Shown: positions 10,852 to 34,264, numbered from the stretch's first letter. The stretch is DNA of 64,000 nucleotides from Candidatus Nanopelagicales bacterium (GCA_030700225.1 JAUYJT010000056.1:663-64662); one strand, 5' to 3'. A program made the numbers and translations. Notes: generated by a model not told the origin, from the sequence alone.

Positions 10852-11865
10852 TCATTCTCCGCTGTCGCCGGCGTCCGGGCAGTAGCAGGCCACCAAGTGG
10901 TCCGGCGAGCTTCCCGGAACCGGCTCCAGTTTCGGAGGGGATCCAGAGCACGCATCGTAGGCCTTCCAGCACCGCCACCGGAACCGGCACCCAGCGCCGA
11001 GAGTCGCGTCGGACCCAGACGCTCGCCCAGCGGTGTCCGTTAGGCTGCTCGGGACGGCCCCGGCCCTTCGTCGGGCCGCGGCCAGCAGCGACCTCGTATA
11101 CGGGTGGGCCGGGCGGCTGTAGATGTCATCGCGCCCCCCCGTCTCGACTATGGAGCCCGAGTACATCACCGCCACCTTGTCGGCGATCTGGCGCACGACG
11201 GCCAGGTCGTGACTGATGAACACGTACGACAAGCCCAACTCGTCCCGCAGATCGAGCAACAGATTCATGATCTGCGCCCGGACCGACACGTCCAGGGCCG
11301 AAACCGGTTCGTCAGCAACGACGATCTTCGGCCGCAAGGCGATCGCCCTGGCGACTCCGATGCGCTGACGCTGGCCGCCGGAGAACTGATGCGGGTACCT
11401 GTTGGCGAACTCCGGGCCCAGTCCGACCTGCTCGAGCAGCCCAGCGACGGCCTGCCTGGACGATCGGTTCGGTGCCAGCGCGTCCGGATGGATGGCGAAG
11501 GGCTCTCGAAGGATCGCCGAGATGGTCATCCTCGGATTCAGCGACAGGTACGGATCCTGAAGCACGATCTGGATGTCCCGCCGCTTCCGGCGAAGCTGAC
11601 GGGCCGAGAGTCCAGCCAGGTCATCCCCGGTTACTTCGACGGACCCAGAAGTCGGGGCCTCCAGCCCGAGCAGCAACCTGGCCGTGGTCGACTTCCCAGA
11701 CCCGCTCTCACCGACTATTCCGACGGACTCCCCCGCGCGCAGTGTCAGCGTCACTCCGTCTACCGCCCTGACTTCGCCGATAGTGCGTTTCCAAATGACT
11801 CCGCGCCGGATCGGGTAGACCTTTGTCAGGTTCGTCGCAGCCAGGACGATCGGGCGCTCAGCCAT
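10852..11865 (-). CDS. Peptide ABC transporter ATP-binding protein (DppF/OppF type)
   Basis: Walker A GESGSGKST and signature FSGGQRQR, with a C-terminal oligopeptide-type extension. Start overlaps the upstream stop. Confidence 0.85.
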   Translation of the reverse strand: MAERPIVLAATNLTKVYPIRRGVIWKRTIGEVRAVDGVTLTLRAGESVGIVGESGSGKSTTARLLLGLEAPTSGSVEVTGDDLAGLSARQLRRKRRDIQIVLQDPYLSLNPRMTISAILREPFAIHPDALAPNRSSRQAVAGLLEQVGLGPEFANRYPHQFSGGQRQRIGVARAIALRPKIVVADEPVSALDVSVRAQIMNLLLDLRDELGLSYVFISHDLAVVRQIADKVAVMYSGSIVETGGRDDIYSRPAHPYTRSLLAAARRRAGAVPSSLTDTAGRASGSDATLGAGCRFRWRCWKAYDACSGSPPKLEPVPGSSPDHLVACYCPDAGDSGE

Positions 11866-12841
11866 GCGACATGACCTCATCAGCCCGCCAGCAGCGGCTC
11901 CAGTGATCTGGCGCCGCCAGGGACCACTCGGGCTCCCGCGCGCACAGATCGATCGCGAGCGCGCACCTGGGCCGGAACAGGCAACCGGACGGCAACTTCA
12001 TCAGGCTTGGGGGAAGGCCAGGGATCGCGGGCAACCTGCCTAACCCGTCGTCCAGCGACGCCACGGACCGCATGAGCCCCTGGGTGTATGGATGAGCTGT
12101 GTTAGCGAGTACAACGGCCGTCTCGCCCTGTTCCATGGCGCGGCCCGCGTACATGACGGTGACCCTGTCGGCCGCGCTGGCGGCAACACCGAGGTCGTGG
12201 GTGATCAACACCAGTCCCATTCCGGTCTCAGCCCGGAGCTCTGATAGGAGGTCCATGATCGCGGCCTCGACCGTCACGTCCAAGGCCGTAGTCGGCTCGT
12301 CGGCGATCAGGACTTCGGGTCGCAGCGCGATCATCATCGCGATCAGGATCCGTTGCCGCATGCCCCCAGAGAACTGATGAGGGTAGTCCCCGTACCGCTT
12401 GTCCGCGGAGGGGATTCTCACGCGTGTCATCGCGTCGATCGCGGCCGCGCGCGCGTCCGCGTGCCCGAGATGCTCATGGACCGTGAACATCTCCGCCACC
12501 TGCCGACCCACGCTGACTACGGGGTTCAGAGCCGACAAGGCGTCCTGGAAGACGATGGCGATTCGCCGGCCTCGGATCTGCCTGTACTCCTTCTCTGTCG
12601 CGCCCACTAGCTCCGTACTCGACAAGCGGATGCTCCCGGAAACTATGCGTGCCCGTTCGGGCAGCATCCCCATCACAGCCAGCGCCGTCATCGACTTACC
12701 CGAGCCGGACTCCCCCAGCAGCGCGACGGCCTCGCCAGCGTTCACCGAGAAGCTGATCCCGTTCACCGCGCGGGCCTCACCATCCCTACTCGAGATGCGA
12801 ACCGAGAGATCCGAAACTTCAAGCACTGGATCAGCCATCAC
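11858..12841 (-). CDS. Peptide ABC transporter ATP-binding protein (DppD/OppD type)
   Basis: Walker A GESGSGKSM and signature FSGGMRQR. Confidence 0.85.
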   Translation of the reverse strand: MMADPVLEVSDLSVRISSRDGEARAVNGISFSVNAGEAVALLGESGSGKSMTALAVMGMLPERARIVSGSIRLSSTELVGATEKEYRQIRGRRIAIVFQDALSALNPVVSVGRQVAEMFTVHEHLGHADARAAAIDAMTRVRIPSADKRYGDYPHQFSGGMRQRILIAMMIALRPEVLIADEPTTALDVTVEAAIMDLLSELRAETGMGLVLITHDLGVAASAADRVTVMYAGRAMEQGETAVVLANTAHPYTQGLMRSVASLDDGLGRLPAIPGLPPSLMKLPSGCLFRPRCALAIDLCAREPEWSLAAPDHWSRCWRADEVMSHG

Positions 12842-20531: not shown

Positions 20532-21131
20532 GTGTACCAGGAAGTCTGGCAACAGCGATACTCCGAGCCCGGGCGCGTCTGGTCCCGGACGCCGAACCGG
20601 TGGCTCATCGACCTCGCCAACACGATGCGTCCAGGATCCGCGCTCGACCTGGCCTGCGGCGAAGGCGCGGATGCGATCTGGCTGGCACTCAACGGCTGGC
20701 AGGTGACCGCTGTGGACTTCGCCCCGGCCGCTATCGAAAGGGCAGCCGCTACGGCAGCGGAGGCGGGCGTCGGTGATCGGATGACCTGGGTTTCGGCAGA
20801 CGTTGACTCCTGGGAGCCCGGCCGCACGTTCGATCTAGTCAGCGTTCAGTTCCTGCACAGCCCCGCTGAGTGCAGGCGCCGCATCCACCGCAAGGCGTGG
20901 CAGGCGACAGCTCGGGCGCTCATCGTCGTCGGTCACGATCCCCGGAACGAGGCCGAGGGTCATTGCGGGCCATCCGATCCTGCGTTGCTCTACGACGCGG
21001 CGGACGTGCTCGCGAGCTTGGGCCTGTCGGAGTCCAGCCCGGAAGTCAAGGTAGCGGAATGCCGCGTCCGGAGCCCCGGGGATCCAGAGCAGATCGCGTT
21101 CGACAGCGTCGTTGTCGTGCGCCGGCTTTGA
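20532..21131 (+). CDS. Class I SAM-dependent methyltransferase
   Basis: SAM-binding motif ALDLACGEGADAIWLA. GTG start uncertain. Confidence 0.7.
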   Translation: MYQEVWQQRYSEPGRVWSRTPNRWLIDLANTMRPGSALDLACGEGADAIWLALNGWQVTAVDFAPAAIERAAATAAEAGVGDRMTWVSADVDSWEPGRTFDLVSVQFLHSPAECRRRIHRKAWQATARALIVVGHDPRNEAEGHCGPSDPALLYDAADVLASLGLSESSPEVKVAECRVRSPGDPEQIAFDSVVVVRRL

Positions 21132-21148
21132 GGATCGACGCCCGCTCA

Positions 21149-21312
21149 AACGTTGAAGCGGAACGATCGCGTGGGGTTTCGGCTGTCGTTGGTCACCGCT
21201 GGGTGATGCCGGAGAACATGGCTTGACCTGCGGAAACGCGTTCACGGGAGCTCGGGCGTCGTCGACGATCGTCGGTCTCGGCTGGACTTCTTGCGGACTA
21301 TTTGCGGACCGC
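21149..21312 (+). repeat. Direct repeat R1: ychF-tail mimic plus ~150-bp arm
   Basis: On the minus strand 21146-21163 reads TTC CGC TTC AAC GTT TGA (FRFNV-stop), the same as the ychF end. The rest aligns by eye along its length with 22995-23156 and ends in TCGGCTGGACTTCTTGCGGACTATTTGCGGACCGC. Confidence 0.8.
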
Positions 21313-21432
21313 AGGATGTCCGGAGCCCCTTCCGCATCTGGTCGAACTCGGCCGCCATGCGTCGACCTCAGAGCCCGAATCTGCGGGCAAACACTCGTAG
21401 CCGGGGCGACAGGGGATCCGCATCGCGACGAT

Positions 21433-21930
21433 TCACAGCTGCGCGCCGTCGAACCTCTCGAAGAACCACCCCGCCTGGTCCGGGACGATCTCCGCCAACT
21501 CGTCGGAGACGTCAAGGTCGTACGCGGCAGCGATCTCACCCACCTGGACGCCAACGAGGGCCCGGAGGCGACCAAGAGCCATTGAGAGCGGATCTGTTCC
21601 CATCGGCCGATAGTGGCGGTCCCAGTCGTCGCCTGCGGAACCCACCTGGTCCATGAACTCGCGGAAGAGACGCTGCAGCAGCTGAACCCGTTGAATCATG
21701 TCCGGGCCAATCTCTGGGTTGTCGAGGTGCACGCCCAGCTGCTTGCGTACGTGATCCGCCGACTGCACGCAATGCTCCTCGATCTCCATCGAGAAGTCCT
21801 TCCAAAGCATGCGTCGGTCGGCCAGCAGGTTGAGCGCCCGTCGCGCAATCTCACGGTCGTCGTCCTTCCGCTCCCATTGCGCTCCGCCGAAGGGTCCAAC
21901 CGATCCGCCGGTGACTCGATATCTGGTCAC
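21433..21930 (-). CDS. Hypothetical protein, second gene of the Ymh-like operon
   Basis: 165 aa from GTG 21930, which overlaps the upstream TGA as GTGA. Predicted helical and acidic; no family recognised. Confidence 0.6.
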   Translation of the reverse strand: MTRYRVTGGSVGPFGGAQWERKDDDREIARRALNLLADRRMLWKDFSMEIEEHCVQSADHVRKQLGVHLDNPEIGPDMIQRVQLLQRLFREFMDQVGSAGDDWDRHYRPMGTDPLSMALGRLRALVGVQVGEIAAAYDLDVSDELAEIVPDQAGWFFERFDGAQL

Positions 21931-22718
21931 AAGCTGACTTCCTCGACGTCGGCCTGGTCTACCCATCGAGCCAACAGGCTGAACGCGGCCAGCTGCTCAA
22001 GAGCCAGTTGCTCCTCGCCACCCGCGCTCTCCTGTGGCTTGTGCATACCGGGGTTCCGAATCGCGGTGTAGAGCCCGTCCGCGAAAGCGCGGGCTCCCCG
22101 ATGGAGATTCTGGTAGGTCTTGCCGCCGTCATCCTCCGCCAGGCGAAGACGAGGTGCTCCTTCCTTAGGCTCGTCAAGCGAGAACGCCTCGTTGAACAAC
22201 GCCGTCTCCGACACGTCCATCCGCCCCAACTTGGCCTGCGTCTCCGCATTGATCCGGATCGCCGCCTGCATGACTGCCTGGTGGCAGTGGCCGGTGTTCC
22301 AGTACGACCTTCCGTTCTCCCACGACCACGGGTGGAGATTGGCAGCGTCCATGTCAGGTGCGTTGTCGCCCAACTTCTCAGCCAACTCCCCCTGACGCTG
22401 GAGCGCAGCCTTGGCACGGGAGGCCTGGTCTCGGAGCCAGTCGAAATCCTCGTCCTTCTTCGGACGCTCGCGCGACCAACCGGGAAGCACGCGGTCGAGA
22501 ATCTGCTCCACAACATGCGCGCGTTGCGACGCCTCGGTTGCCGGGCCACGCATGACGGTTCCGAAGTAGGCGATGCCCGGTCCCATGTCAGGGACGACCT
22601 GTGCCGTCACGCCCAGGAACGCGTCGATCTCACTGATTGCCCACTCGGGATCCAACTTCGCCACGGAGACATCTTGCCGCGATGCGCCGACCGAACGAGT
22701 GTCGGAGGCGCGTGTCAC
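21927..22718 (-). CDS. Protein with a C-terminal TIGR02391/Hypoth_Ymh-like domain
   Basis: C-terminal ~130 aa (LHPWSWENGRSYWNTGHCHQAVMQAAIRINAE ... LHRGARAFADGLYTAIRNPGMH ... EQLAAFSLLARWVD) fit the Ymh pattern as I remember it. N-terminal ~115 aa unassigned. Start uncertain (GTG 22718 or 22664). Confidence 0.65.
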   Translation of the reverse strand: MTRASDTRSVGASRQDVSVAKLDPEWAISEIDAFLGVTAQVVPDMGPGIAYFGTVMRGPATEASQRAHVVEQILDRVLPGWSRERPKKDEDFDWLRDQASRAKAALQRQGELAEKLGDNAPDMDAANLHPWSWENGRSYWNTGHCHQAVMQAAIRINAETQAKLGRMDVSETALFNEAFSLDEPKEGAPRLRLAEDDGGKTYQNLHRGARAFADGLYTAIRNPGMHKPQESAGGEEQLALEQLAAFSLLARWVDQADVEEVSL

Positions 22719-22727
22719 GCTCTCTGC

Positions 22728-22973
22728 ATGAGTAACCGTCGCAAGCCGAAGCGCCGCAACCCCGACCCGGCCTCACGCCGCGCCGAGGCGGAAGCTCTTG
22801 TCGACAAGATCCTTCATGACACGCCGGAAGGTCGAGTAGACCCGGCAATCTCAGAGAACCTGCGGCAACATCTTGCGCGGAACCCCGGCCAGCCCGACCG
22901 CGCTCTGCTCAATCACTTCAAGGACCAGATTCCCGACTTCGACGCGGCGTTCCCGGAGGACCTGGAGAAGTAG
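22728..22973 (+). CDS. Small hypothetical protein with a basic N-terminus (81 aa)
   Basis: ATG-initiated ORF MSNRRKPKRRNPDPASRR..., divergent from the Ymh-like gene. A weak hairpin follows at 22977-22994. No homology recognised. Confidence 0.3.
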   Translation: MSNRRKPKRRNPDPASRRAEAEALVDKILHDTPEGRVDPAISENLRQHLARNPGQPDRALLNHFKDQIPDFDAAFPEDLEK

Positions 22974-22994
22974 CAGGGCGGGGCTCTCACGCCC

Positions 22995-23156
22995 CATTGA
23001 AACGGAACGACCACGCGGGATTTGGCCGTTGGTGGTCATCCTGGGTCGATGCCGAAGAGTGCCGCTTGTCCCGCAGCAACGCACTCTCCGGTCCGTTGAG
23101 CGTCGTTGGCGCCCTTCAGGCTCGGCTGGACTTCTCGCGGACTGCTTGCGGACCGC
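22995..23156 (+). repeat. Direct repeat R2: degenerate ychF-tail mimic plus ~150-bp arm
   Basis: Minus-strand 22987-23007 reads FRFNGA-stop. The arm aligns with R1 and ends in TCGGCTGGACTTCTCGCGGACTGCTTGCGGACCGC. Confidence 0.8.
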
Positions 23157-23162
23157 TGGCAA

Positions 23163-23942
23163 TCAGTCATCGGCTTCCAACTCAAGGATGGCGTTGGCGA
23201 CCTCGGACGGGAAGAGCGTCGACCAGATGATCTCGCCCGAGCCAGGGTTCATCTCAGCGAGTGGCGACGGTTCGGGCTGCCAGTCCTCGGGTGTCACACC
23301 CGGGACACAGTCGAGGAGCAGCGCGAAAATCTGCGGATCGGGAACTCCCTCGGCGATGATCGCGAGGTAGGCCTCATGGCCGTTCTCTGCTCGCACAAGA
23401 GCCTTGATCCGATGGCTGCGGAACTCGGCGACGGCGAGGTGGCCGTTCTTCAAGGACATCGAGACAAGGCGGATGACCATCCGCTTCATCTCACGCCGCC
23501 AAGCAACGGCCTGTTCCGCTGCGAGGCGCTTCCAGTCCCAATCGGCCGGAAGAAGGTGATCTGAGGAGACGGTCTTCCCCGTCGTGCACTCTCGCTGCAG
23601 GGTGGCGTAGAAATCGCGCTGAGGGCTGTCCGCTTGGCGTCGACCAGCCGCTCCGATCCACCACGCCCCTCGGCTCGGGCGCACCCAGTCCGGGAGTTCC
23701 TCGCCGCGAAGCTCTGTGACGGCGGCGCGATGGTCACTGGTCTTGACCTTGAACCAGACGCGGTCGGCGAGCGCAACGACGCGCTCTGCGCCACCGGCAT
23801 CCCGCTGCTCTGGAACGCTCTGAGCGTTAGCCACGACCGGGTGATCGATCTCTTCCAACCGGATCCCGAGGTCCGGCAGACCAGCCGCAAGGTCACCGAG
23901 GCAGCGCTTCGTCGGACGCACGCCGATCGGTTCCGAGACCAT
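23163..23942 (-). CDS. Hypothetical 259-aa protein downstream of an RHH gene (candidate toxin/effector)
   Basis: Clean ORF 47 nt downstream of the RHH gene. The segment RVWFKVKTSDHRAAV...AWWIGAAGRRQADSPQRDFY loosely resembles the RelE/ParE beta-sheet pattern. C-terminal ~140 aa unassigned. Confidence 0.6.
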   Translation of the reverse strand: MVSEPIGVRPTKRCLGDLAAGLPDLGIRLEEIDHPVVANAQSVPEQRDAGGAERVVALADRVWFKVKTSDHRAAVTELRGEELPDWVRPSRGAWWIGAAGRRQADSPQRDFYATLQRECTTGKTVSSDHLLPADWDWKRLAAEQAVAWRREMKRMVIRLVSMSLKNGHLAVAEFRSHRIKALVRAENGHEAYLAIIAEGVPDPQIFALLLDCVPGVTPEDWQPEPSPLAEMNPGSGEIIWSTLFPSEVANAILELEADD

Positions 23943-23989
23943 GGCGCGAATCTAGCGGCCAGGTCCGACGGTCAGCGGGCCGTCATGGG

Positions 23990-24250
23990 CTACTTCGGCA
24001 GCCCGCCGAGGTCATCGAGCTCTTCGGCGCTGAGGCCGGTCATAAGCGACACAGCAGCAGCTTCGGTGCCTTTGAGCTGACCGAGCGCAGCCTTGACGCC
24101 AGCGTTGATCTCATCGCGGTGTGCGTCGATGTACTCGCGCACGGCGGCATCGACGATGTCCTTCTTCGAGCGGGACATGAAGTGAGCTGCGTGCGACACA
24201 AGCTCGTCAGTCGCGGCGTCGACCTTGATCGGCGCAGTAGCGGTAGCCAT
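23990..24250 (-). CDS. Ribbon-helix-helix (CopG/ParD-like) DNA-binding protein, antitoxin-like
   Basis: 86 aa from ATG 24250, preceded by AAGGAGGG. The N-terminus PIKVDAATDELVSHAAHFMSRSKKDIVDAAVREYI fits the beta-alpha-alpha RHH pattern. Confidence 0.65.
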   Translation of the reverse strand: MATATAPIKVDAATDELVSHAAHFMSRSKKDIVDAAVREYIDAHRDEINAGVKAALGQLKGTEAAAVSLMTGLSAEELDDLGGLPK

Positions 24251-24269
24251 AGCGCTGCCCTCCTTCTCG

Positions 24270-24283
24270 GGTACCAAAGTACC
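24270..24283. promoter_or_regulatory. Palindrome GGTACCAAAGTACC upstream of the RHH gene (candidate operator)
   Basis: Perfect 5+5 inverted repeat with a 4-nt spacer, 20-33 nt upstream of the RHH start on the minus strand. Confidence 0.35.
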
Positions 24284-24313
24284 AGTATCTACCGTCATGG
24301 CAAATCCGCGTGG

Positions 24314-25381
24314 ATGGTTATGCGTCCGGCCGCACGTCGCCGATCCGCCTGTGGGCGCCAGTGCACGCCGATAACCTCAGAGGCACCATGGGTTACCGGG
24401 GACGACGACGCCAACCGCCTTGCCGCCCAAGCGCGCGCCCGCGTGCTCATCGACCGGCAGCTCGCCGAGGCGGGCTGGTCGGCGCAGGACCTTAAGTACG
24501 TCGTCCTGTTCCGCCCGATCGGCTCGATGGTCGAGTTCAAGCAGATCGTCGGGCGAGGGTCACGTCTCTACCCCGAGAACGACAAGTACTCCTTCGAGAT
24601 CGTGGACTACGTCGGCGCTTCGGTCCTTTTCTCCGATCCAGGCTTCGACGGTGAGCCGGTGCGCATACGGACCGAGCGCATCGACGAGTCCGGCGAGATC
24701 GTCGAAGACGAACTCGGGGACGTTGCCCCCGAGATGCCGTCGCTTGGCGAACCCGAGCCCCCCTTCGACCGAACCCAGTCCGAAGGAGAGCTCGAACAGC
24801 CGTCGGCGAGGAAGCATTACGTCGACGGCACAGAGGTCACTGTGACTGCCGAGGCGTACTACGTCGCTGACACGAGTACCGGCGCTCTCCGCCTCGTGGA
24901 ATACACGGACTACCTGGCCGGCCAGGTGCGCGTGCTGTGTCCGACCATCGATGACCTTCGCGCACGCTGGGCCGATCCTCAGCTACGTGCGGTCTTGGAG
25001 GAGGGCCTCGCCTCGCGCGGCGTGTCCATCGAAGAGATGTCGAGGCGCCTCGAACTTGCGCCCGACACGGACCCCTTCGACGTCCTCGCACACGCCGCCT
25101 GGAACGTTCCTCAACGGACGAGGGCGGAACGCGCTCGGCTGGTGCGCGAAGACCACGCGAGCGACCTCAAGGCGCTGGTGCCGACCGCGCGCGAGATCAT
25201 CTCCGCCCTCCTCGACCGCTACGAGGAGTACGGCGTCGAGGAGATGACCCACATCTACGCCTTCCAGGTGCCGCCGCTGAGCAACTTCGGCTCACCCGTC
25301 GAAGCGGCACAACACTTCGGCGGCGCTGAAGGCTGGCGCCAAGCCGTCAGCGAGCTCCAAGGTTGGCTGTACTCAGCGTGA
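24314..25381 (+). pseudogene. hsdR: Type I restriction enzyme R subunit remnant (in-frame internal deletion)
   Basis: HsdR-like N-terminal motif ARARVLIDRQLAEAGW is joined directly to helicase motif VI (FKQIVGRGSRL) and an EcoEI_R_C-like C-terminus (DPFDVLAHAAWNVPQRTRAERA). Nuclease and DEAD-box motifs I-V are absent. Confidence 0.7.
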
Positions 25382-25435
25382 GTTTTATTTTAGCGACGGC
25401 CGACTGCATAGAACTAAAGTCTAGATTGAGTTCGA

Positions 25436-26047
25436 ATGCGCTATGCTTGGCCCATGGCCGGCACTCGACAGGATCTGCGGCTGGCGCTCCAACGCCTTGC
25501 CTTCAGCCAGGCTGGCTACTTCACCGCCGCCGAGGCTCTCGACCTCGGGTACAGCTATCAGGCACAGAAGTACCACGCCGATAGTGGCAACTGGCTGCGA
25601 GTCGACCGTGGTCTGTTCCGACTTCCCGACTGGCCCTCCGCTCCCGAGGACCAGTGGGTGCGCTGGACCCTATGGAGCGAGGGCCGTGGCGTCGTGTCCC
25701 ACGACTCGGCCGCGCTCGTCCACGACCTCGGCGAGCTCGATCCCCGCCACGTGCACCTGTCCGTTCCCCCCGGATTCCGGGCCGTGGATCCGGCGGTGGT
25801 CACGCATGTGTACGATCTGCCTGCCGCGGACGTTCTCGACCGCGGCGCCTGGCGGGTGACTACGCCGCTGCGCACACTGCTCGATCTCGCGGGTGGCGAC
25901 ACCACGCAGGAGCAACTCGAGGCTGCGGTCGCCGCCACGCTGGAGCGGGGCCTGACGACCGCGCGCCGGATCCGCACTCGCTCGGACGAGGCCGGAGACC
26001 GGGCGGCGCTCCGCATCGAGCGGGCGCTCAAGGCAACGACGACATGA
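25436..26047 (+). CDS. Type IV toxin-antitoxin system AbiEi family antitoxin
   Basis: 203 aa with an AbiEi-like wHTH N-terminus (LAFSQAGYFTAAEALDLGYS) and an ATGA overlap with the downstream nucleotidyltransferase. Preceded by the only low-GC patch in this region (25381-25435). Confidence 0.75.
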   Translation: MRYAWPMAGTRQDLRLALQRLAFSQAGYFTAAEALDLGYSYQAQKYHADSGNWLRVDRGLFRLPDWPSAPEDQWVRWTLWSEGRGVVSHDSAALVHDLGELDPRHVHLSVPPGFRAVDPAVVTHVYDLPAADVLDRGAWRVTTPLRTLLDLAGGDTTQEQLEAAVAATLERGLTTARRIRTRSDEAGDRAALRIERALKATTT

Positions 26048-26898
26048 CCGACAACCAGGCGCTCAGAACCAGCATCGAGCAACGGCTCGCCAATCTGGCG
26101 GCCGAGCGACAAGTCTCGCTCGATCGGTTGCGCCGCCACTTCGTTTTCCAGCGGATCCTGGTTCGACTGTCCGCGGACGACAACTGGGTACTCAAAGGCG
26201 GCTTCGCCCTCGAGGTCAGGCTCGGCCTCGACGCCCGGGCGACCAAGGATCTGGATCTGGCCATGCTGGAGGACCTCGACGGCGTCGAGGCGCAGGATCG
26301 TCTGCTCGATGCTCTCGACGTCGACGCCGGTGACGGATTGACCTTCCAGGTGTCCGCACCGCGAGCGATCGCCTCGGACGATGCCGGAAACCCCGGCTGG
26401 AGGTTCACCGTCACATCGGTCCTAGGCGGCAAGGTCTTCGCATCGCTGCGCCTCGACGTCGTCGCGCGGAGCGCGGAGATCGTCGGCGCCATCGGCACCA
26501 TCGAGGTACGCCCGCCGATCCTCGCGGAACTCCTGAGCAGCACCGCGATGCCGACGGTGGACATCGCCCAGCACGCCGCGGAGAAGTTCCACGCGATGGC
26601 CCGGACGTACGCCGGAGATCGACCCAGCAGCCGCGTCAAGGACTTGGTCGACGTCGTACTCCTCGTGGAAGCGGGGCTGCTGCCGAATCCGGACCTGCCC
26701 GGTCGGCTTCAAACGGTCTGGCAGGTGCGGGACGGCGTGCCGCCACCGGCACAGCTCCCCGATTTCCCGGCGTCGTGGCCCAGCGACTTCGCCGCAATGG
26801 CCGCTGAACTCGATCTGGCCGTCGACTACCCCACCGCCCGCTCCACCGCCGAACGACTCTTCGCCGAGGCGGTCACCACCGAGGAGAACCAATCGTGA
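26044..26898 (+). CDS. AbiEii/AbiGii nucleotidyltransferase toxin (DUF1814)
   Basis: VLKGGFALEVRLGLDARATKDLDL nucleotidyltransferase motif. 284 aa. Its stop overlaps the hsdM GTG as GTGA. Confidence 0.8.
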   Translation: MTDNQALRTSIEQRLANLAAERQVSLDRLRRHFVFQRILVRLSADDNWVLKGGFALEVRLGLDARATKDLDLAMLEDLDGVEAQDRLLDALDVDAGDGLTFQVSAPRAIASDDAGNPGWRFTVTSVLGGKVFASLRLDVVARSAEIVGAIGTIEVRPPILAELLSSTAMPTVDIAQHAAEKFHAMARTYAGDRPSSRVKDLVDVVLLVEAGLLPNPDLPGRLQTVWQVRDGVPPPAQLPDFPASWPSDFAAMAAELDLAVDYPTARSTAERLFAEAVTTEENQS

Positions 26899-28391
26899 GC
26901 CGTGCCGCCAAGAGCGTTGCCCAGACCCCGCAGGCGCGTCTCGCGTCGGTCATCAAGACCAGTCGGGACATCATGCGCAAGGACGCCGGCCTCAACGGCG
27001 ACCTGGACCGGCTTCCTCAACTGTCCTGGCTCCTCTTCCTCAAGGCCTTCGACGACCTCGAGCGGAACAGGATGATCGTCGACCCCAGCTACCGGCCAGC
27101 ACTGCCGGAGGAGCTCCGATGGAGCGTGTGGGCGGCAGATCCGACCAAGCGCAAGCAGGGTGACGCCCTCATCAACTGGGTCAACGGAACCCTGCTCCCG
27201 GGGCTTGGCCGACTGAAGGGATCCGGCCGGGCGGGCGACCCTCGCACCACGCTCGCCACGGTCTTCAAAGAGACCAACAACCGAATGCTGTCCGGCTACC
27301 TGCTCGGTGACCTGATCGACCAGATCGACAAGGTGCACTTCACGTCGGCCGACGACATCCACACCATGGCCCATCTGTACGAGTCGATGCTGCGCGAAAT
27401 GCGGGACGCAGCCGGAGACTCGGGCGAGTTCTACACACCCCGGCCGGTGATCCGGCTCATGGTCGAGCAGGTCAATCCGCGCTTGGGCGAGACGGTGCTG
27501 GACCCGGCTGTCGGCACAGGCGGATTCCTGGTCGAGGCATACGAGCACCTCCGCGCCCAGGCGCGGTCCGCGACCGAGATCGCGACGGCGAAACGCTCGA
27601 TCAGCGGCTTCGAGAAGAAGCCACTCCCCTACCTGCTCTGCCAGATGAACCTGCTCCTGCACGAAGTGGAACAGCCCAACGTCACCCGCATGAACTCGCT
27701 GACCTTCTCGTTGGCTGACCAGCGCAAGGCCGGCGTCGACGTCGTTCTGACCAACCCGCCGTTCGGGGGTGAGGAGGAGAGCAGCAGCCTGGGGAACTTC
27801 CCTGCCGACTCGCGGACGGCAGAGACCGCCTGGCTGTTTCTCCAGGTGGTGATGGCGCGCCTGGAGAAGAGGAAGGGCCGCTGCGGGATCGTCGTCCCCA
27901 ACGGGGTCCTCTTCGCCAACGAGGGCGCGCCGGCACGGATCAAGAAGAAGCTGCTCACCGACTTCAACCTGCACTCTGTGGTGCGGCTGCCCAACGGCGT
28001 CTTCGCTCCGTACACCCTCATCCCCTCCAACCTGCTCTTCTTCGAATACGGCGGGCCAACGAAGGACATCTGGTTCTACGAGCAGCCCCTGCCGGAGGGG
28101 CGGAAGAACTACACGAAGACAAGACCGCTGCGTTTCGAGGAATTCGCCGATGTCCAGGCATGGTGGGGTGGCACGGATCGAGTCGGCCGAGTCGAGAACG
28201 AGCACGCGTGGAAGGTCGACGCCGCCACACTCGCGGAGGACGGCTACAACCTGGATCTCCGCAACCCGCATCGTGCCGACGATCTGACGCATCGCTCGCC
28301 CGAGGAACTCGTCAAGGAACTGATTGCCGTGGAGGAGCAGATCCTCGCAGCCCTTCAGGACCTCCAGTCCAACCTCGGGAACGACGCCTGA
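26895..28391 (+). CDS. hsdM: Type I restriction-modification system methyltransferase subunit
   Basis: N6-adenine MTase motif IV NPPFGG, SAM motif VLDPAVGTGGFL, and an HsdM N-terminal domain. Confidence 0.9.
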   Translation: MSRAAKSVAQTPQARLASVIKTSRDIMRKDAGLNGDLDRLPQLSWLLFLKAFDDLERNRMIVDPSYRPALPEELRWSVWAADPTKRKQGDALINWVNGTLLPGLGRLKGSGRAGDPRTTLATVFKETNNRMLSGYLLGDLIDQIDKVHFTSADDIHTMAHLYESMLREMRDAAGDSGEFYTPRPVIRLMVEQVNPRLGETVLDPAVGTGGFLVEAYEHLRAQARSATEIATAKRSISGFEKKPLPYLLCQMNLLLHEVEQPNVTRMNSLTFSLADQRKAGVDVVLTNPPFGGEEESSSLGNFPADSRTAETAWLFLQVVMARLEKRKGRCGIVVPNGVLFANEGAPARIKKKLLTDFNLHSVVRLPNGVFAPYTLIPSNLLFFEYGGPTKDIWFYEQPLPEGRKNYTKTRPLRFEEFADVQAWWGGTDRVGRVENEHAWKVDAATLAEDGYNLDLRNPHRADDLTHRSPEELVKELIAVEEQILAALQDLQSNLGNDA

Positions 28392-29512
28392 TGGCGGTGC
28401 GGCAGGTGCGAGTAGGGGACATCCTCTCGCTTCACCGCGTTCCCGTTCAGATTGACGAGGCAGATAGCTACAGGCAAATCGGCCTCTACTCCTGGGGCAA
28501 AGGGTTCATCCATCGACCTTCGTGTCTCGGCTTCGAACTCAGCAAGCTTCGTTACTTTCAGATCCCAGCCGGCGCTCTCGTTCTCAGCAGCATCCAGGCA
28601 TGGGAGGCGGCCATCGCCGTATCGACCAACGCTGAAGCTGAATTCATCGGGTCGAACCGGTTCCTTAGCTATGTACCGCGCACCGACGACGTGGACGTGC
28701 GCTACTTACTGCACTACTTCCTCTCCGAACCTGGTCTCCACCAGATCAAGCAGGCTTCGCCGGGAACGCAGGTACGAAACCGAACGCTGGGGCAGCAACT
28801 CTTCGAGCGCCTAGCAATTCCCCTGCCCGACGTCACCGAGCAGCAGTGCATTGCCGCACGCCTCGACCGAATCGTGGCAATCTCGACGTCGTTCGGCGAA
28901 CCTCCGACCGCGGCCCTTCGAGACAACTTCCTCGATAGGGTCTCGCAGAGATCACGGATCGGGCACATCATCACGCTTGCTCGACACCCTGTGAGCGTCA
29001 AAGCGAGCGAGGCCTACCCGAACCTCGGCATCCTCAACCGGGCCCGTGGTGTGTTCGCCAAGCCGCCGATGCTGGGTTTAGGGACGAAGTACTCGACCTT
29101 GTATCGGGTGCGCGCCGGACAGTTGATCTATTCGAAACTGTTCGGCCGGGAGGGATCGCTCGCCATCGTGCCCGAGTGGGCGGACGGGTGGTTCGTCTCC
29201 AGCGAGTTCCCCACGTTCGACGTGAACACCGACGCAGTAGATCTCGACTACTTCGGCCAGGTGTTGCGCTGGCGCGGTCTCGCGGAACAGCTGGCCGCCG
29301 CGACGTCAGGGATGGGTCAGCGGCGACAGCGCGTGCAGATCGACCAGTTCGAGGCGCTCGAGGTCCCGTTGCCAGACCTCCCGACCCAACGCCACATCGG
29401 CGCCGATCTCCTCCGACTCGCCGCAGTCGAGGGCCTGGTGGCCCACAGGGCAACGCTGTCGGCCGGCCTACTTCCTGCCGCTCGGAATCAAGCGTTCGCC
29501 AGCCTCACCTGA
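28391..29512 (+). CDS. hsdS: Type I restriction-modification system specificity subunit
   Basis: ATG overlaps the hsdM TGA (TGATG). 373 aa with two target-recognition-like halves separated by a helical spacer (LPLPDVTEQQCIAARLDRI and LPLPDLPTQRHIGADLLRL). Confidence 0.8.
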   Translation: MAVRQVRVGDILSLHRVPVQIDEADSYRQIGLYSWGKGFIHRPSCLGFELSKLRYFQIPAGALVLSSIQAWEAAIAVSTNAEAEFIGSNRFLSYVPRTDDVDVRYLLHYFLSEPGLHQIKQASPGTQVRNRTLGQQLFERLAIPLPDVTEQQCIAARLDRIVAISTSFGEPPTAALRDNFLDRVSQRSRIGHIITLARHPVSVKASEAYPNLGILNRARGVFAKPPMLGLGTKYSTLYRVRAGQLIYSKLFGREGSLAIVPEWADGWFVSSEFPTFDVNTDAVDLDYFGQVLRWRGLAEQLAAATSGMGQRRQRVQIDQFEALEVPLPDLPTQRHIGADLLRLAAVEGLVAHRATLSAGLLPAARNQAFASLT

Positions 29513-30161
29513 CGCTGCGCCATGAACTTCCCGCGATTACTACGTGGTCAAGGAACCGGAGTCCGGCCGCATCGGCGGCCCGGCCTACGGCGCCAGTGGC
29601 CTCACGGTCGTAGATGCTTGGGGTCGGATCTCCAGAAGGATGATTGTGCGCGAGGGCGAACGCTCGACCGTCGTACCGCAGCACGGCGTGCAGCACCTCT
29701 CGGACAGGCAACGGACTCGAGTCCAGGCCTCCAGTTGCAACGGGTACAAGGCGAAGCACGCGGTTGGCGGCGTCGGCCACCAGGACCACGACCTTCTCCC
29801 GCCGTTCGCGGGCGAGCACCGGGGCGACCAGCTCAGCGATCGCGGCTGCGGAGTCCACGACACGGTTGGCCGGTGAAGCTGTAGCCCGAGCCGCTAGTTC
29901 GAATGCGGCTGTTAGGCGCACTGCCTCTGCGGGGCCGATGCTTGATGACCGCATCAGCTCCTCAGGAAACGCGGCTGCCAGGCCACTCAGTCCTCCGCAC
30001 TCGTCGATCAGTTTCCGACCCACCGCAACCTCGTCGCATCCCTGTGGTGCTACGGCGGCTACCAGGGCAACAAGCTCGGCGTCGCTGAGCGCGCCAGGTC
30101 CCAGACTCAGGAGACGCTCGCGGGGCTGGTCGCCGGCGAACAGCCGCGACGTGATCGACAT
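29505..30161 (-). CDS. radC: RadC-like JAB/MPN domain protein
   Basis: JAMM motif LAHNHPSGDPTPS and an N-terminal HhH-like region. Converges on hsdS with an 8-nt overlap. Confidence 0.8.
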   Translation of the reverse strand: MSITSRLFAGDQPRERLLSLGPGALSDAELVALVAAVAPQGCDEVAVGRKLIDECGGLSGLAAAFPEELMRSSSIGPAEAVRLTAAFELAARATASPANRVVDSAAAIAELVAPVLARERREKVVVLVADAANRVLRLVPVATGGLDSSPLPVREVLHAVLRYDGRAFALAHNHPSGDPTPSIYDREATGAVGRAADAAGLRFLDHVVIAGSSWRSVR

Positions 30162-30231
30162 CCCGCAACGCTAGGTCGCAGAGCCGACGAGCACTATCGC
30201 GCCCGAGACACCTGTGGAAAGGCTAGCTTCG

Positions 30232-30570
30232 TCAGCCCTTGAAGATGCAGGTCGGATCGTTGTCGTACTCGGCCAGCAGCCGCTCGATCGGCTGATCCGG
30301 CTCGAGAAGGTCGTAGGCATGGGCTCGGGAGTTCCGATCGAACCAGTACAGGGTCCAGCCCTTCGTTTGCTCGTCGTACTTCATCCGAGCCTGCGGAGTG
30401 TCGGTCCACTCCGGGCCTAGCGCCGGATTCCACGGCGGCCGATGCTCGACGATCGTCACGGTGCGACCGCGCACGCGGTGCTCCACACGCACCTGTTCCC
30501 GCATCTCGGGCGGGACCTGCGTCTCGCAGAACCGCCGGATCCGCGCGAGATCGGTCTCTGGGACGGCCAT
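30232..30570 (-). CDS. DUF3024-like protein
   Basis: 112 aa from the internal ATG (MAVPETDLARIRRFCE...VTIVEHRPPW...GWTLYWFDRNSRAH), a pattern I associate with DUF3024. Confidence 0.6.
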   Translation of the reverse strand: MAVPETDLARIRRFCETQVPPEMREQVRVEHRVRGRTVTIVEHRPPWNPALGPEWTDTPQARMKYDEQTKGWTLYWFDRNSRAHAYDLLEPDQPIERLLAEYDNDPTCIFKG

Positions 30571-30784
30571 GGGCTCAGTATCTGATGAGTATCGCCGGGG
30601 CCGCCATCCGCGTCCCACCCTTCCCGCTCTCGTGCCCCTCACTGACTACCGCCGACTCCTCACCGTCGCGAGAATCTCTCCCACGTCGCACCCGCCTTCG
30701 CCCTCAACCCCTTTGAGTGGCACCCATCAGACAGAACCCGCGAACCTTGCCGATTGGTCGGCCCTGGCTGCAAAGATCGATGTC

Positions 30785-31696
30785 ATGAGCGGCAAGCACA
30801 TCGAGCTCTTCCTCGTCGACGGCACCCCCGGCGGCCTGACGACTGCGGAGATCCTGAACTGGACGGGGCAGGTCTTCAGTGCTCCGCGATCGGAGATGAG
30901 CGCCCTCGTCCGCCGCGCCGAGCTCGCGGGCACGTGCGTGTACCTACTGCTCGGTCCCGACGAGCAAGGCGGCAGCCGTTGCTACATCGGCGAGACCGAC
31001 GACTTCAAGGCACGCCTTCGATACCACGATGCGAACAAGGAGTTCTGGCGCAAGGCCGTGGTGATCACCTCGAAGGACGCGAACCTGACGAAGGCACACG
31101 GCCGCTATCTGGAGTCCCGCCTGATCGCACTCGCTCTCCAGGTCGGCCGCGTCGTCCTCGACAATGGGACGACTCCTCCGCCACAGGCACTGCCCGAGGC
31201 GCACGCCTCCGACATGGACTACTTCATCGACCAGCTGCAGATTGTCCTGCCGGCCCTCGGAGTCGATGCCATCCGCGGTCGGGAGACCGTCGCAGTGACG
31301 GCAGCGCGGCAGGAACAGCTGGTGTCGCCGGTCTTTCGTCTCGTGAACATGAAGCTCGGCGTCGCTGCAACGGCTCAGCAGATCGACGGGGAGTTCACGA
31401 TGCTGGCCGGTTCTACCGTCGTGGGTGACTGGCAGGGCGTGGGGAAGGCCGACAGCACGATCAAGGCGTACGACTCGTACCGAACCCAACACCTCAAGCT
31501 CATCGCCGACGGCTCGATCATCGTCGAGAACGGTGTCGGTCGGGTCGCGAAGGACATCGTCTTCGGCTCCCCATCGACCGCTGGCGCGATCGCTCAGGGG
31601 CGCTCCTGCAACGGCCGGACCTCCTGGGCGGCGGAGGACGGCAGCACCTTCGGCTCCTGGGAGAGCCGCGGTGTCGGGACAACGGAGGTCTCCTGA
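30785..31696 (+). CDS. GIY-YIG nuclease domain protein with a DUF4357-like C-terminus
   Basis: GIY-YIG elements CVYLLLG, CYIGETDDFKARLRYH and ESRLI. The C-terminus FGSPSTAGAIAQGRSCNGRTSW is typical of DUF4357. Start ATG 30785; the upstream ORF extension is antisense to DUF3024. Confidence 0.75.
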   Translation: MSGKHIELFLVDGTPGGLTTAEILNWTGQVFSAPRSEMSALVRRAELAGTCVYLLLGPDEQGGSRCYIGETDDFKARLRYHDANKEFWRKAVVITSKDANLTKAHGRYLESRLIALALQVGRVVLDNGTTPPPQALPEAHASDMDYFIDQLQIVLPALGVDAIRGRETVAVTAARQEQLVSPVFRLVNMKLGVAATAQQIDGEFTMLAGSTVVGDWQGVGKADSTIKAYDSYRTQHLKLIADGSIIVENGVGRVAKDIVFGSPSTAGAIAQGRSCNGRTSWAAEDGSTFGSWESRGVGTTEVS

Positions 31697-31698
31697 CC

Positions 31699-31842
31699 AT
31701 GGCTGGCATCCAGCACCTGTCCATGCGCGCGCCATGGCGCGACCGACCGTGGGACCAGTTCCTCTGCGACGACCCGCTCGGCAACTCCTCATGCACTCTC
31801 CTCGCGGCGATCGGCAAACGTCGTGACGACGACACTGGTGAG
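31699..31842 (+). pseudogene. N-terminal stub (~48 codons) of a larger gene coupled to the GIY-YIG gene
   Basis: ATG lies 2 nt after the GIY-YIG stop. MAGIQHLSMRAPWRDRPWDQFLCDDPLGNSSCTLLAAIGKRRDDD looks like a genuine conserved N-terminus, but after ~31842 the frame runs antisense through another gene. Confidence 0.45.
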
Positions 31843-31989
31843 GAGCGGCAATTGATTCAGGCGCTCCTCGGCCTGCCGGAGGAACGACGCCGCACGCGCG
31901 ACGTCTGCGGGCACGACATCGAGACGTCCCGCCTCGACCAGCGCGAGCACGGTCGCCTGCTGGACGCGGGTGAGCGGGGTCAGCGCCAC
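31789..31989 (-). pseudogene. Truncated partner gene of the wHTH-nucleotidyltransferase (possible HEPN-type toxin remnant)
   Basis: GTG 31989 overlaps the upstream stop by 10 nt. About 49 plausible codons (VALTPLTRVQQATVLALVEAGRLDV...RLNQLPLLTS) are followed by junk read-through to the stop at 31789. Confidence 0.4.
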
Positions 31990-32564
31990 GGCAGCTCCCC
32001 GATCACGGCGACCGCCGGGCCGCTGCGCACGTTGTCCAGGAAGCCGGAGGGAGCGGCGAACTCCGCATCTGTGAGGATCGTCGGGTTCACGGGCCGGTGC
32101 ACCGCAGCCTCGATCCGGGCGCACGCCTCGTAGACCGCGTCCACGTCGGGCTCACCGAGCACCATGACGTCGATGTCGTGCGGTGCCGGACCGGCATCCC
32201 CGAGCATCCGCGCGGCGAAGGAACCGTAGAGGAACGCCGACTCGATCCCGTCGATGCGAGCAAGCTCCTCGGCCAGGATCACCACCGGACCAGTAGCGAC
32301 CGTGAGGATCTCGCGCAACGGCTCCACCAGCGGGCTCTCGCCGTTGGCGCGGATCAGCCTCGTGCGGCCCACCTGCCGCTCGCTCAGGATGCCAGCGTCC
32401 ACCAGGCGCGCGACCTCGCGGTGCGCGGTCGGGTATGCCAGGCCCGCCCGTTTGGCCAGATCGGTGACGCTGAGCTCCTCGCCGGTCAGCAACAAGGTGG
32501 AGAGCAGGCGCGCTTGGCCGTCCGACCGGAAGATCGGAGCGAGGAGCGGTGCCTCAGTTCTCAT
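31980..32564 (-). CDS. Winged-helix (ArsR/MarR-like) plus nucleotidyltransferase-domain protein (MNT-type antitoxin-like)
   Basis: HTH region LSVTDLAKRAGLAYPTAHREVARLVDAGIL and NTase motif LYGSFAARMLGDAGPAPHDIDVMVL. ATG 32564 chosen. Confidence 0.7.
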   Translation of the reverse strand: MRTEAPLLAPIFRSDGQARLLSTLLLTGEELSVTDLAKRAGLAYPTAHREVARLVDAGILSERQVGRTRLIRANGESPLVEPLREILTVATGPVVILAEELARIDGIESAFLYGSFAARMLGDAGPAPHDIDVMVLGEPDVDAVYEACARIEAAVHRPVNPTILTDAEFAAPSGFLDNVRSGPAVAVIGELPWR

Positions 32565-32573
32565 ATAACTGAG
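32553..32573. promoter_or_regulatory. 7-bp inverted repeat CTCAGTT-N7-AACTGAG spanning the start codon of the wHTH-NTase gene
   Basis: Perfect inverted repeat in a low-GC patch. Candidate autoregulatory operator or 5-prime hairpin. Confidence 0.35.
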
Positions 32574-32975
32574 ATTATCCTCCACTATATCGATAGTCAA
32601 CGCCGGGGAATAGTCAAGACCTGTGGATTGGCGTGTCTCATGCTGCGGTGATCCCGTCGGGGCGCTCGATGAGTTTGAACGCCATCGCCACGCCATCTGC
32701 CCTCGAGCCTGGACCTTTGGTGACTTTGGTCCGCAGCCGGACGGTCGCGAACACGGACTCCATCGTTCATCGTTATCTGGAGGCGTCCAGCAGGGGGGTC
32801 CTTGGAGGTCTGATGCTCGTTCAGCGGGTGGCGGCACTACGAGCCGTGCTTGAAGCCGAAATCGCGCAGAATGTCGGACCCGTAGTACACAATGAGGAGG
32901 TCAACGCAGCCTAAGCGATCAACGGGCCGCTACCGAAGTTCCACGGAACTCGGGACATCCTCGAAACGCGCCGAT

Positions 32976-34055
32976 TCACACGTTGAAGCGGAACTCCACG
33001 ACGTCCCCTTCGGCCATGACGTAGTCCTTGCCCTCGATATGCAACTGGCCGCGCGCCCTGGCCTCGGCCAGGGACCCGGCCGCGACCAACTCATCGAAGG
33101 ACACGACCTCGGCCTTGATGAACCCGCGCTGGAAATCAGTGTGAATGACGCCGGCGGCCTCCGGTGCCGTGGCGCCCCTGCGAATCGTCCAAGCGCGCGA
33201 TTCCTTCGGGCCAGCTGTCAGGAAAGTCTGCAATCCGAGCGCGTCGAAAGCGACACGCGCCAAAGCCGCGATGCCTGACTCCTCCTGCCCGACCGACCGC
33301 AGAAGCTCAAGGGCTTCCTCTTCGGGCAGCTCGGCCAGCTCCGACTCGACCTTCGCGTCCAGAATCACGGCCTCCGCCGGGGCCACCAACGCACGTGCCT
33401 GGGCCGCGAAGTTCGGGTCCGCCAGCTCCTGCTCATCCGCGTTGATCACGTAGAGGAAGGGCTTGGCCGTCAACAAGAACAGCTCCCGGATCGCGGCGGC
33501 GTCGACGCCGGATCCGAACAGGGTCCGCCCAGAGTCCAGGATCTCCTGCGCCCGCAGGGCTGCGGATAGGGCCGCACCGCGCGACTTGTCGTTTCGAGCC
33601 TCCTTCTCCAACCTGGGGATCGCCTTCTCGAGGGTCTGCAGGTCCGCCAGGATCAGCTCAGTGTTGATCGTGTCCATGTCATCGGCGGGCGATATCCGAC
33701 CCTCCAGATGGATCACATCTGGGTCCTCGAACGCTCGCAGTACCTGGCAGATCGCGTCGGACTCGCGGATGTGAGCCAGGAACCTATTCCCCAACCCCTT
33801 GCCCTCGCTGGCACCGCGCACGATCCCCGCGATGTCGACGAAGGTGACCGCCGCCGGTACGACCCTCCGCGAGGCGAAAACCTCCGCCAGAACGTCCAGC
33901 CTGGGATCCGGCACCCCAACGACGCCAGTGTTCGGCTCGATCGTCGCGAAGGGGTAGTTGGCGGACATGGCGGCCGCTGAGTTGCGAGTCAGGGCGTTCA
34001 GCAGCGTCGACTTTCCAACGTTAGGCAAGCCGACGATTCCGACAGTGAGTCCCAC
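32976..34055 (-). CDS. ychF: Redox-regulated ATPase YchF
   Basis: P-loop GIVGLPNVGKST, and a C-terminal IHTDFQRGFIKAEV TGS-type domain. Ends in EFRFNV-stop. Confidence 0.9.
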   Translation of the reverse strand: MGLTVGIVGLPNVGKSTLLNALTRNSAAAMSANYPFATIEPNTGVVGVPDPRLDVLAEVFASRRVVPAAVTFVDIAGIVRGASEGKGLGNRFLAHIRESDAICQVLRAFEDPDVIHLEGRISPADDMDTINTELILADLQTLEKAIPRLEKEARNDKSRGAALSAALRAQEILDSGRTLFGSGVDAAAIRELFLLTAKPFLYVINADEQELADPNFAAQARALVAPAEAVILDAKVESELAELPEEEALELLRSVGQEESGIAALARVAFDALGLQTFLTAGPKESRAWTIRRGATAPEAAGVIHTDFQRGFIKAEVVSFDELVAAGSLAEARARGQLHIEGKDYVMAEGDVVEFRFNV

Positions 34056-34160: not shown

Positions 34161-34264
34161 GGCGGCCGTTCCTGACAAACGCGACCGTTAGGGTACAGAC
34201 GCGACCGTTGCAACGGGAGTTTCTTTGCGTAACGGTCGCGTTTGGCGGGAACGGTCGCTTCTTC
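34161..34264 (-). repeat. Structured dispersed intergenic repeat, copy B (inverted)
   Basis: Perfect 15-bp inverted repeat CAAACGCGACCGTTA (34176-34190) / TAACGGTCGCGTTTG (34230-34244) enclosing the 12-bp palindrome CCGTTGCAACGG (34205-34216). The reverse complement aligns with copies A and C. Confidence 0.85.

Follow-up and report, generated by a model that had tools for sequence, protein, structure and literature searches.

Integration of mobile elements, their decay to cis-mobilizable elements (CIMEs) and their accretion at one site were described previously for streptococcal and other elements (PMC5704250). According to the same review of 2017, the known canonical integrative mobilizable elements (IMEs) use only relaxases of the MobP, MobQ, MobV or MobC types, none of them having MobF, and only one IME from Actinobacteria was known (PMC5704250). 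In Actinomycetota, the ychF gene was reported to be an integration site for pipolins, which carry large serine recombinases (PMC11551731). A pneumococcal element near ychF, placed between dnaN and ychF (PMC6375853), is not comparable, because it is located at the promoter end of the gene. Here we consider a stretch of 64,000 nucleotides from Candidatus Nanopelagicales bacterium (GCA_030700225.1 JAUYJT010000056.1:663-64662), called the window below, in which an island of about 11.8 kb lies behind ychF, the gene of a redox-regulated ATPase, and is marked by recurring copies of the ychF tail. We consider it highly probable that this island is a decayed tandem array, produced by repeated integration of one family of small IMEs into the ychF tail. 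An earlier reading of the window, made from the sequence alone (the sequence-only reading), stated that ychF is not a commonly described integration target. The statement has to be refined with respect to pipolins; on tyrosine-integrase elements at the ychF 3' end we found no paper. Nothing was found in the literature linking ychF with actinomycete integrative and conjugative elements (AICEs) or with Mycobacterium prophage integration sites.

The ychF gene (32976-34055, minus strand; Pfam YchF-GTPase_C and MMR_HSR1) has a translation ending EFRFNV-stop, and its terminus, TTC CGC TTC AAC GTG TGA, matches the consensus FRFNV-stop. The last 19 nt of the gene, GTTCCGCTTCAACGTNTGA (32976-32994), constitute tail copy C, which we read as an attL core. 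They are repeated exactly in tail copy A, GTTCCGCTTCAACGTTTGA (21146-21164, minus strand), 14 nt from the stop codon of a methyltransferase gene; over a longer comparison, 22 of 26 bases of tail A and the ychF end are identical. Direct repeats equal to the target are therefore present at both ends of the island, one of them completing ychF. A degenerate tail copy B, TTC CGT TTC AAT GGG GCG TGA (FRFNGA-stop), is found at 22987-23007. When the 19-nt tail pattern was sought with up to three mismatches, three matches were obtained in the 64-kb window versus 0.02 expected by chance. Thus, the recurrence of the tail pointed out by the sequence-only reading is real, and the possibility it raised against itself, that such strings are chance matches, fails. 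Copy B is too degenerate for this pattern, and its validation comes from an arm of about 170 nt that it has in common with copy A. The third of the matches, at 25292-25310 and with three mismatches, falls within the coding part of hsdR and is probably fortuitous.

Copies A and B are homologous over about 170 nt on their ychF-proximal side (21153-21315 versus 22996-23159), a feature not noted in the sequence-only reading, and these arms show no similarity to the ychF body. Unit A (21134-21330, minus strand; nhmmer 8.5e-57) is of attR type and comprises a P arm (21165-21330) and the exact tail, followed by the chromosomal flank. Unit B (22982-23171, minus strand; nhmmer 1.2e-47), of the same type, comprises a P arm (23008-23171), with GTCCGCAAGCAGTCCGCGAGAAGTCC, and the degenerate tail. 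In the direction of ychF, the order is repeats, about 50 nt, a near-invariant CGCAGGTCAG box, about 70 nt and the tail. The arm of the family has three AGTCCGCAA-type repeats at 11-nt phase in addition to the box, and both A and B have three such phased repeats; in arm A they read GGTCCGCAAAT AGTCCGCAAGA AGTCCAGCCGA, with a CGCAGGTCA box. From their sequence and arrangement, we infer that the AGTCCGCAA repeats are putative arm-binding sites of an integrase. Arm A is 87.6% identical to the arm of the ychF locus L054, and between genera the arms are conserved at 82-88% versus 71-72% for ychF.

Profile searches with nhmmer detected the arm-plus-tail unit only downstream of ychF and in the same orientation, in L054, L048, L053 and L023. 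A metagenome scan with the arm repeat motif returned more than 120 contigs, and in 46 of the 121 analysed the ychF tail stands at a constant +147 nt from the motif. The alignment of 45 distinct arm copies revealed strong conservation of length and of several blocks. Other contigs from the scan have the same repeats ahead of tRNA 3' ends or of another gene tail, or as a P' arm adjoining an integrase gene, and P arm, tail and P' arm are contiguous in L085, L110 and L112. Since the same arms precede other cores, one arm-binding integrase lineage seems to have changed its core specificity several times. Individual instances of AGTCCGCAA repeats before tRNA 3' ends or before a protein-gene tail ...YYDI-stop were seen in L081, L099, L100, L103, L111, L147, L156, L166, L182 and L197; L146, L165 and L200. 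The site studied here is not a tRNA-type target, as Rfam and tRNA scans of the 64-kb window gave no match. Nor does the island belong to a known prophage, because the arm had no match in a phage collection and the integrase of the family is only 30-36% identical to actinophage integrases.

Further evidence came from 80 ychF loci fetched from species representatives, the best YchF among which is only 76% identical to that of the window. In nine of these loci (L036, L052, L009, L064, L006, L057, L008, L032, L029), the strand opposite to ychF encodes a tyrosine integrase, whose gene has its end no more than about 50 nt from the ychF stop. The interval separating this stop from the integrase contains a TTCCGCAGGTCAG box and, 11 nt apart from each other, paired repeats that are absent elsewhere in those loci. 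The paired repeat is AGTCCGCA (GTCCGCA) in L009, L064, L008 and L032, GTCCACA in L057, GTCCTTGGA in L052, and CTGGGCC in L036 and L006; to judge by their sequence, these pairs look as P' arm-type integrase sites would. The same repeats as in arms A and B occur beside integrase genes in L009, L064 and L032, and also in L053. Nine further ychF loci have displaced tails or arms and no integrase, and altogether an integrase, a displaced tail or an arm is present at the ychF 3' end in about 18 of the 80 species representatives. L054 and L053 have kept both the P' arm and the P arm. Upstream synteny (rmuC, ispH) is kept in 53-58 of the 80 loci, and the downstream (left) flank of the window was found in none of them.

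The genes enclosed between tails in these loci are diverse. They include YefM-YoeB pairs in L021 (two cassettes), MNT-HEPN in L054, L053 and L048, a cupin with an EthD-like gene in L001, a methyltransferase in L065, a P450/monooxygenase/LuxR block in L048, and a sigma/anti-sigma pair in L045. The YefM-YoeB genes between ychF tails belong to Kitasatospora and Streptomyces (L021, 11080-12730; L020, about 11080-11900); the two cassettes of L021 are in opposite orientation, and the arm in L021 and L020 is shorter, about 95 nt, still with a GCGTTTCCGCAGG box. Behind the sigma/anti-sigma pair of L045 stands the native tail in displaced position, ...VMQDGDVVEFRFNV-stop. Altered or extended ychF C-termini (VEFRHGAT..., VEFRFQAT..., VEFRHS-stop) were noticed in L005, L030, L033, L035, L045, L048 and L056, with no recombinase identified in these loci; they represent additional recombination scars, of other kinds, at this site.

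An apparently intact relative of about 5.6 kb, L131, consists of an integrase (Phage_integrase), an excisionase (HTH_17), a TrwC/AAA_30 relaxase-helicase, MNT, HEPN, arm and tail. The gene order of L131 is repeated in L170 as far as the arm, which has no detectable tail there; the backbone is shared by L196, a relative of larger size, and TrwC with AAA_30 is present in L131, L170, L186, L190 and L196. The integrase of L131 shares 58-64% identity with those of the ychF loci L052, L009, L006, L064, L057 and L008, and 40% with that of L036. Because of the L131-type gene order and this integrase kinship, we regard the family as small integrative mobilizable elements; the ychF-proximal module of the window is their right end. 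Intact members with a TrwC/MOBF-type relaxase-helicase and no mating-pore genes are L131, L170, L186, L190, L196, L118 and L097.

Homology of the island to these relatives is mosaic. Positions 31824-32602, comprising MNT and the first ~55 HEPN codons, are 86-94% identical in nucleotide sequence to at least 15 contigs. Positions 24485-28877 and 29471-30659, with type I restriction-modification (R-M), AbiE, RadC and DUF3024 genes, are 81-88% identical to L159, L144 and L186 (85-87% over 3.9-4.4 kb for the R-M/AbiE block), and in L186 the R-M/AbiE/RadC cargo stands behind the TrwC relaxase of the family. Positions 22997-24294, with the genes of a 102-amino-acid (aa) and a 259-aa protein and arm B, are 85.6% identical to L190, where the two-gene module stands behind a relaxase of the family. 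The ychF gene of the window is only 71-72% identical to ychF of genomes that have the same MNT-HEPN cassette, the cassette itself being 88-94% identical. With 81-94% identity of the cargo versus 71-72% of ychF, the cargo is, as judged from these comparisons, horizontally acquired; there is no shift in G+C. At 31824, inside HEPN, the homology ends for every relative, and a second breakpoint is found at about 24485, where ~32 N-terminal residues of an L190-type HsdR are fused to the C-terminal 307 of the L159/L186 type (blastp); hsdR is full length in L159 and L186 (788 and 974 aa). This chimera is exactly what would be expected if a deletion had joined the hsdR genes of two tandem elements lying side by side in the same orientation, an event that would also remove the arm and tail of the first element and the integrase, excisionase and relaxase of the second. 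The view of the sequence-only reading that a genomic island lies at the ychF 3' end can be kept, but this island is not a single element, given its mosaic cargo and the chimeric hsdR; it probably comprises at least three or four members of the family, with internal deletions. On the other hand, the phased-repeat arms, the integrases at the ychF stop in nine of 80 loci, the intact relatives and a cargo more identical than ychF agree with what that reading proposed about the origin of the tails, and support their interpretation as putative att-site scars of site-specific integration.

The following sequence of events would account for these observations. A tyrosine integrase would recombine attP with the last five codons and the stop of ychF. 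The attP that we propose has a P arm bearing three phased AGTCCGCAA repeats; next come a CGCAGGTCAG box and a core identical to the tail of ychF, and then, beside the integrase gene, a P' arm in which there are two further repeats. Every integration would restore an intact ychF end at attL, and the previous tail, now behind the P arm, would be shifted further downstream as attR. New elements entering the existing tail would in this way form a tandem array by accretion, stacking the cargoes MNT-HEPN, PDC-S14 with DUF3024, RadC and type I R-M/AbiE, the pair of 102-aa and 259-aa genes, and Ymh with DUF6650. Deletions would then have eliminated all integrase-excisionase-relaxase backbones and two internal att junctions, leaving a fixed, integrase-less island of defence and toxin-antitoxin genes bounded by ychF tails.

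Several points weigh against this interpretation. The number and order of the integration and deletion events are our reconstruction. Behind tails C and B we could detect no repeats of a P' arm, no origin could be identified for a 375-nt spacer next to ychF, and the unit of Ymh and DUF6650, apart from its arm, has no relative among the fetched loci (tblastn). The closest other YchF in a database of 5.8 billion proteins is 79% identical, and the insertion in this lineage is deduced from distant relatives, because no close relative with an empty or differing site is available. Exact look-ups of YchF, the methyltransferase and MNT, with chosen start codons, gave no match. Contigs reached via PPK2, IspH, RadC, the 259-aa protein and a shorter YchF contain the same island and match the window at 100% identity; these are Logan short-read contigs from two samples. 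They end at 20367, 21175, 23202 and 32974, positions which include arm starts or ends; contigs of two independent samples break at 20367, and the break at 32974 is 2 nt after the ychF stop. Such breaks may be due to strain heterogeneity or to k-mers common to related elements, and the one at 20367 would put the methyltransferase inside the variable region.

A separate problem is whether the units are still mobile. They might be integrase-less cassettes that continue to be excised, exchanged or captured at the ychF tail by an integrase of the family acting in trans, encoded elsewhere in the genome or brought by an incoming element, a possibility we consider unlikely, although tail-bounded minimal forms without integrase occur in unrelated genera (L054, L053, L048; L021; L001). 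Both P' and P arms kept in L054 and L053, the contiguous P arm, tail and P' arm of L085, L110 and L112, the intact repeats in arms A and B, and a cassette far better conserved than the host backbone would fit such cassettes as well. However, repeated decay of full elements like L131 explains the minimal forms equally well, the two internal junctions are plain deletions inside genes, the arms have no attC-like conserved hairpin, and there is no integrase within the 64 kb. Moreover, the attL sites look incomplete, because tails C and B are not followed by P' arm repeats; for this reason we assign a low probability to residual mobility of the array, even though cassettes with both arms exist elsewhere. 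In its widest form, the proposal would make the ychF tail an open landing pad across Actinomycetota, at which defence cassettes would be exchanged much as in integrons but by means of a lambda-type att site, and the array of the window would still be active; this seems to us rather doubtful. If true, it would mean that MNT-HEPN, YefM-YoeB and 102/259 cassettes are moved in trans, and the array described here could capture or release units.

Explanations that dispense with a tyrosine integrase altogether fare worse. Because the island has no recombinase of its own and copy B is degenerate, it might be proposed that the tails are chance strings, long target-site duplications left by a transposon, or the decaying pieces of a ychF 3' end that had been duplicated. 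We find this extremely improbable in view of the 0.02 matches expected by chance, the arms that are unlike the ychF body and conserved across genera at 82-88% versus 71-72% for ychF, the same arm motif ahead of tRNA 3' ends in other contigs, and the integrases abutting the same site in nine species; a 19-26 bp repeat together with a 170-nt arm is also unlike a transposon target duplication. Delivery of the island by a large serine recombinase of the pipolin type is very unlikely. Window open reading frames (ORFs) of 150 codons or more contained no serine recombinase motif, the island ORFs that were scanned contained no domain of a primer-independent PolB, and the phased arm-type repeats, typical of a tyrosine-integrase attP, are found in the relatives in physical linkage with tyrosine integrases. 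The att sites of serine integrases are short and have no arms of this kind. What speaks for this route is the report of ychF as a pipolin integration site in Actinomycetota (PMC11551731) and the unexplained origin of the altered C-termini in several ychF loci. Finally, strong conservation of length and blocks across the 45 distinct copies might suggest that the arm of about 170 nt is a structured non-coding RNA or a regulatory element travelling with the cassettes. There is very little to be said for this possibility, as the arm matched no Rfam family, gave a negligible consensus fold on either strand with no covariation support, and had a single-sequence folding energy equal to that of shuffles; its conservation is concentrated in 11-nt-phased direct repeats, fitting protein binding, and the core is accompanied by the same repeats on its integrase side as well. 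Thus, repeated integration followed by accretion and decay remains the interpretation that we adopt.

The content of the island, in a window of 65% G+C with no compositional step at its borders, is described here starting from ychF. The spacer of 375 nt between the ychF stop and the MNT gene (32601-32975) occupies the position of the backbone and P' arm of an intact element; it has no arm-type repeats and no blastn or tblastn match in the fetched loci, and its ORF at 32633-32914 has no Pfam hit. It is followed by the gene of an MNT-type antitoxin with HTH and nucleotidyltransferase domains (31980-32600, minus strand; PADLOC PDC-M05A, 1.5e-105 over the whole model; Pfam NTP_transf_2 and HTH), the conserved right-end cargo of the element family, and by a truncated HEPN toxin gene (31789-31989, minus strand) with about 55 of 152 codons homologous. 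The HEPN of L131 covers only 32118-31825 in tblastn, and this intact homologue has a Pfam HEPN hit. A GIY-YIG/DUF4357 protein, the candidate defence gene PDC-S14 (30569-31696, plus strand; Pfam, PADLOC), is 66% identical in amino acids to its L190 counterpart. The DUF3024 protein (30232-30642, minus strand; Pfam 4e-30) is recurrent in the element family, with homologues in L159, L190, L090, L170 and L118; DUF3024 genes were also seen in L125 and L155, and are usually placed just upstream of the terminal MNT or 102-aa module. A RadC-like JAB domain protein (29505-30161, minus strand; Pfam RadC and UPF0758_N) is 78-83% identical in amino acids to those of L159, L144 and L186.

Genes abiEi, abiEii, hsdM and hsdS (25436-29512, plus strand; Pfam, PADLOC) form an AbiE pair nested in a type I R-M operon, next to the chimeric and truncated hsdR (24320-25381, plus strand; blastp), which matches only positions 488-800 of 807 of the PADLOC REase_I model. 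The start of hsdR and the coordinates of PDC-S14 were mapped onto the window from gene calls in the identical contig L207. The two-gene module (23163-24298, minus strand) encodes the RelB/VapB-like 102-aa protein (23990-24298) and the 259-aa protein (23163-23942); its nucleotide identity of 85.6% to L190 extends over 1304 nt, and it is the conserved right-end cargo of another subfamily, found also in L116, L195, L192 and L023. The 102-aa protein gave only weak antitoxin hits, the 259-aa protein had no Pfam, NCBIfam, PADLOC or PDB match, and the two are possibly a new toxin-antitoxin or defence pair. In five other contigs, the module has 80-97% amino acid identity and stands always directly before an arm-plus-tail unit. 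The most distal unit (21433-22718, minus strand; gene calls in the identical contig L206) consists of Hypoth_Ymh, HEPN/Abi-like (ORF 21927-22718), and DUF6650 (21433-21966), both recognized by Pfam, the former also by a weak PADLOC Aga_HEPN match (3.6e-06). Beyond tail A lies the gene of a SAM-dependent methyltransferase (20532-21131, plus strand; Pfam Methyltransf_25), convergent with ychF and presumed to be the chromosomal flank on the B' side. A 29-nt inverted repeat (34162-34190 and 34230-34258; 90% complementary, 39-nt spacer) is located between rmuC and ychF, and a Logan contig ends inside this intergenic region, at 34225.

The defence content of the island comprises type I R-M (HsdM and HsdS intact, HsdR truncated), AbiEi/AbiEii, PDC-S14, PDC-M05A and the weak Aga_HEPN match. 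Pfam, motif and tblastn scans detected no integrase, excisionase, relaxase or transposase either in the island or in the rest of the 64-kb window. The accessory gene content is therefore as first described in the sequence-only reading, including the lack of an integrase; of the three truncated genes listed there, two were verified, hsdR and HEPN, and the third was not identified. With integrases of the family as queries, tblastn had no match in the island up to an E value of 10, and the matches that it gave elsewhere in the window were short and weak (E >= 0.015). Weak integrase and excisionase hits at 55-60 kb are spurious, the region containing proline metabolism, ABC transporters, a TetR regulator and a P-type ATPase.

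The results reported here indicate that the ychF 3' end is a frequently used attachment site in Actinomycetota. They define the att architecture and the responsible family, small integrase-excisionase-TrwC relaxase elements with defence or toxin-antitoxin cargo, and should aid the annotation of integrase-less defence islands which standard island finders miss. They also provide a concrete case of island fixation, with the chimeric hsdR as a sign that a deletion occurred between elements lying next to each other. As integration, accretion and decay are textbook processes, the value of this work is in cataloguing and annotation rather than in a new principle; the mechanism is an ordinary one, operating at a little-described target site.

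When compared with known systems, the island has some likeness to integron arrays, being a row of promoter-distal, mostly small toxin-antitoxin and defence cassettes, each ending in a copy of the recombination site, beside a fixed landing site. However, no IntI-type integrase or attI is found beside the array, the repeated site has no conserved attC-type hairpin, and intact members of the family are self-contained, with their own integrase. Pipolins have the same target gene in the same phylum and also carry defence systems (PMC11551731), but they possess a large serine recombinase and a primer-independent PolB, neither of which is present here, whereas the family described here has tyrosine integrases and long arms. 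The proposed attP resembles that of lambda in having a core identical to the target and 8-9-nt motifs at fixed phase, which occur in an arm at a distance of about 150 nt from the core and again towards the integrase; the repeats differ in sequence among integrase-bearing loci, and the role of these motifs as arm sites is predicted here from sequence. Canonical IMEs are paralleled by L131, L170 and L196, att-bounded elements with an integrase, an HTH_17 excisionase and a relaxase, followed by toxin-antitoxin or defence cargo. Unlike them, the copy in the window has lost the three backbone genes, no relaxase remnant being found in it, and the relaxase of the family is of the TrwC/MOBF type.

A close parallel is provided by the CIME/ICESt1-ICESt3 islands at the fda 3' end of Streptococcus thermophilus. 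The island described here differs from them in phylum, target gene, integrase lineage and arm, and in that two internal att junctions are also deleted. The strict definition of a CIME, in which attL and attR are both retained, does not clearly apply to it: attR-type arms A and B are well preserved, and the attL sides, after tails C and B, are without recognizable P' arms such as the paired repeats of L053, L054, L009 and L064. In both systems, integration occurred into the 3' end of a conserved protein gene whose end was rebuilt, direct repeats of the gene tail mark each junction, and related elements are stacked. The genes int, xis and relaxase, absent from the window, are all present in intact relatives, and here, as in the streptococcal islands, integration and transfer genes were lost while att sites and cargo persist.

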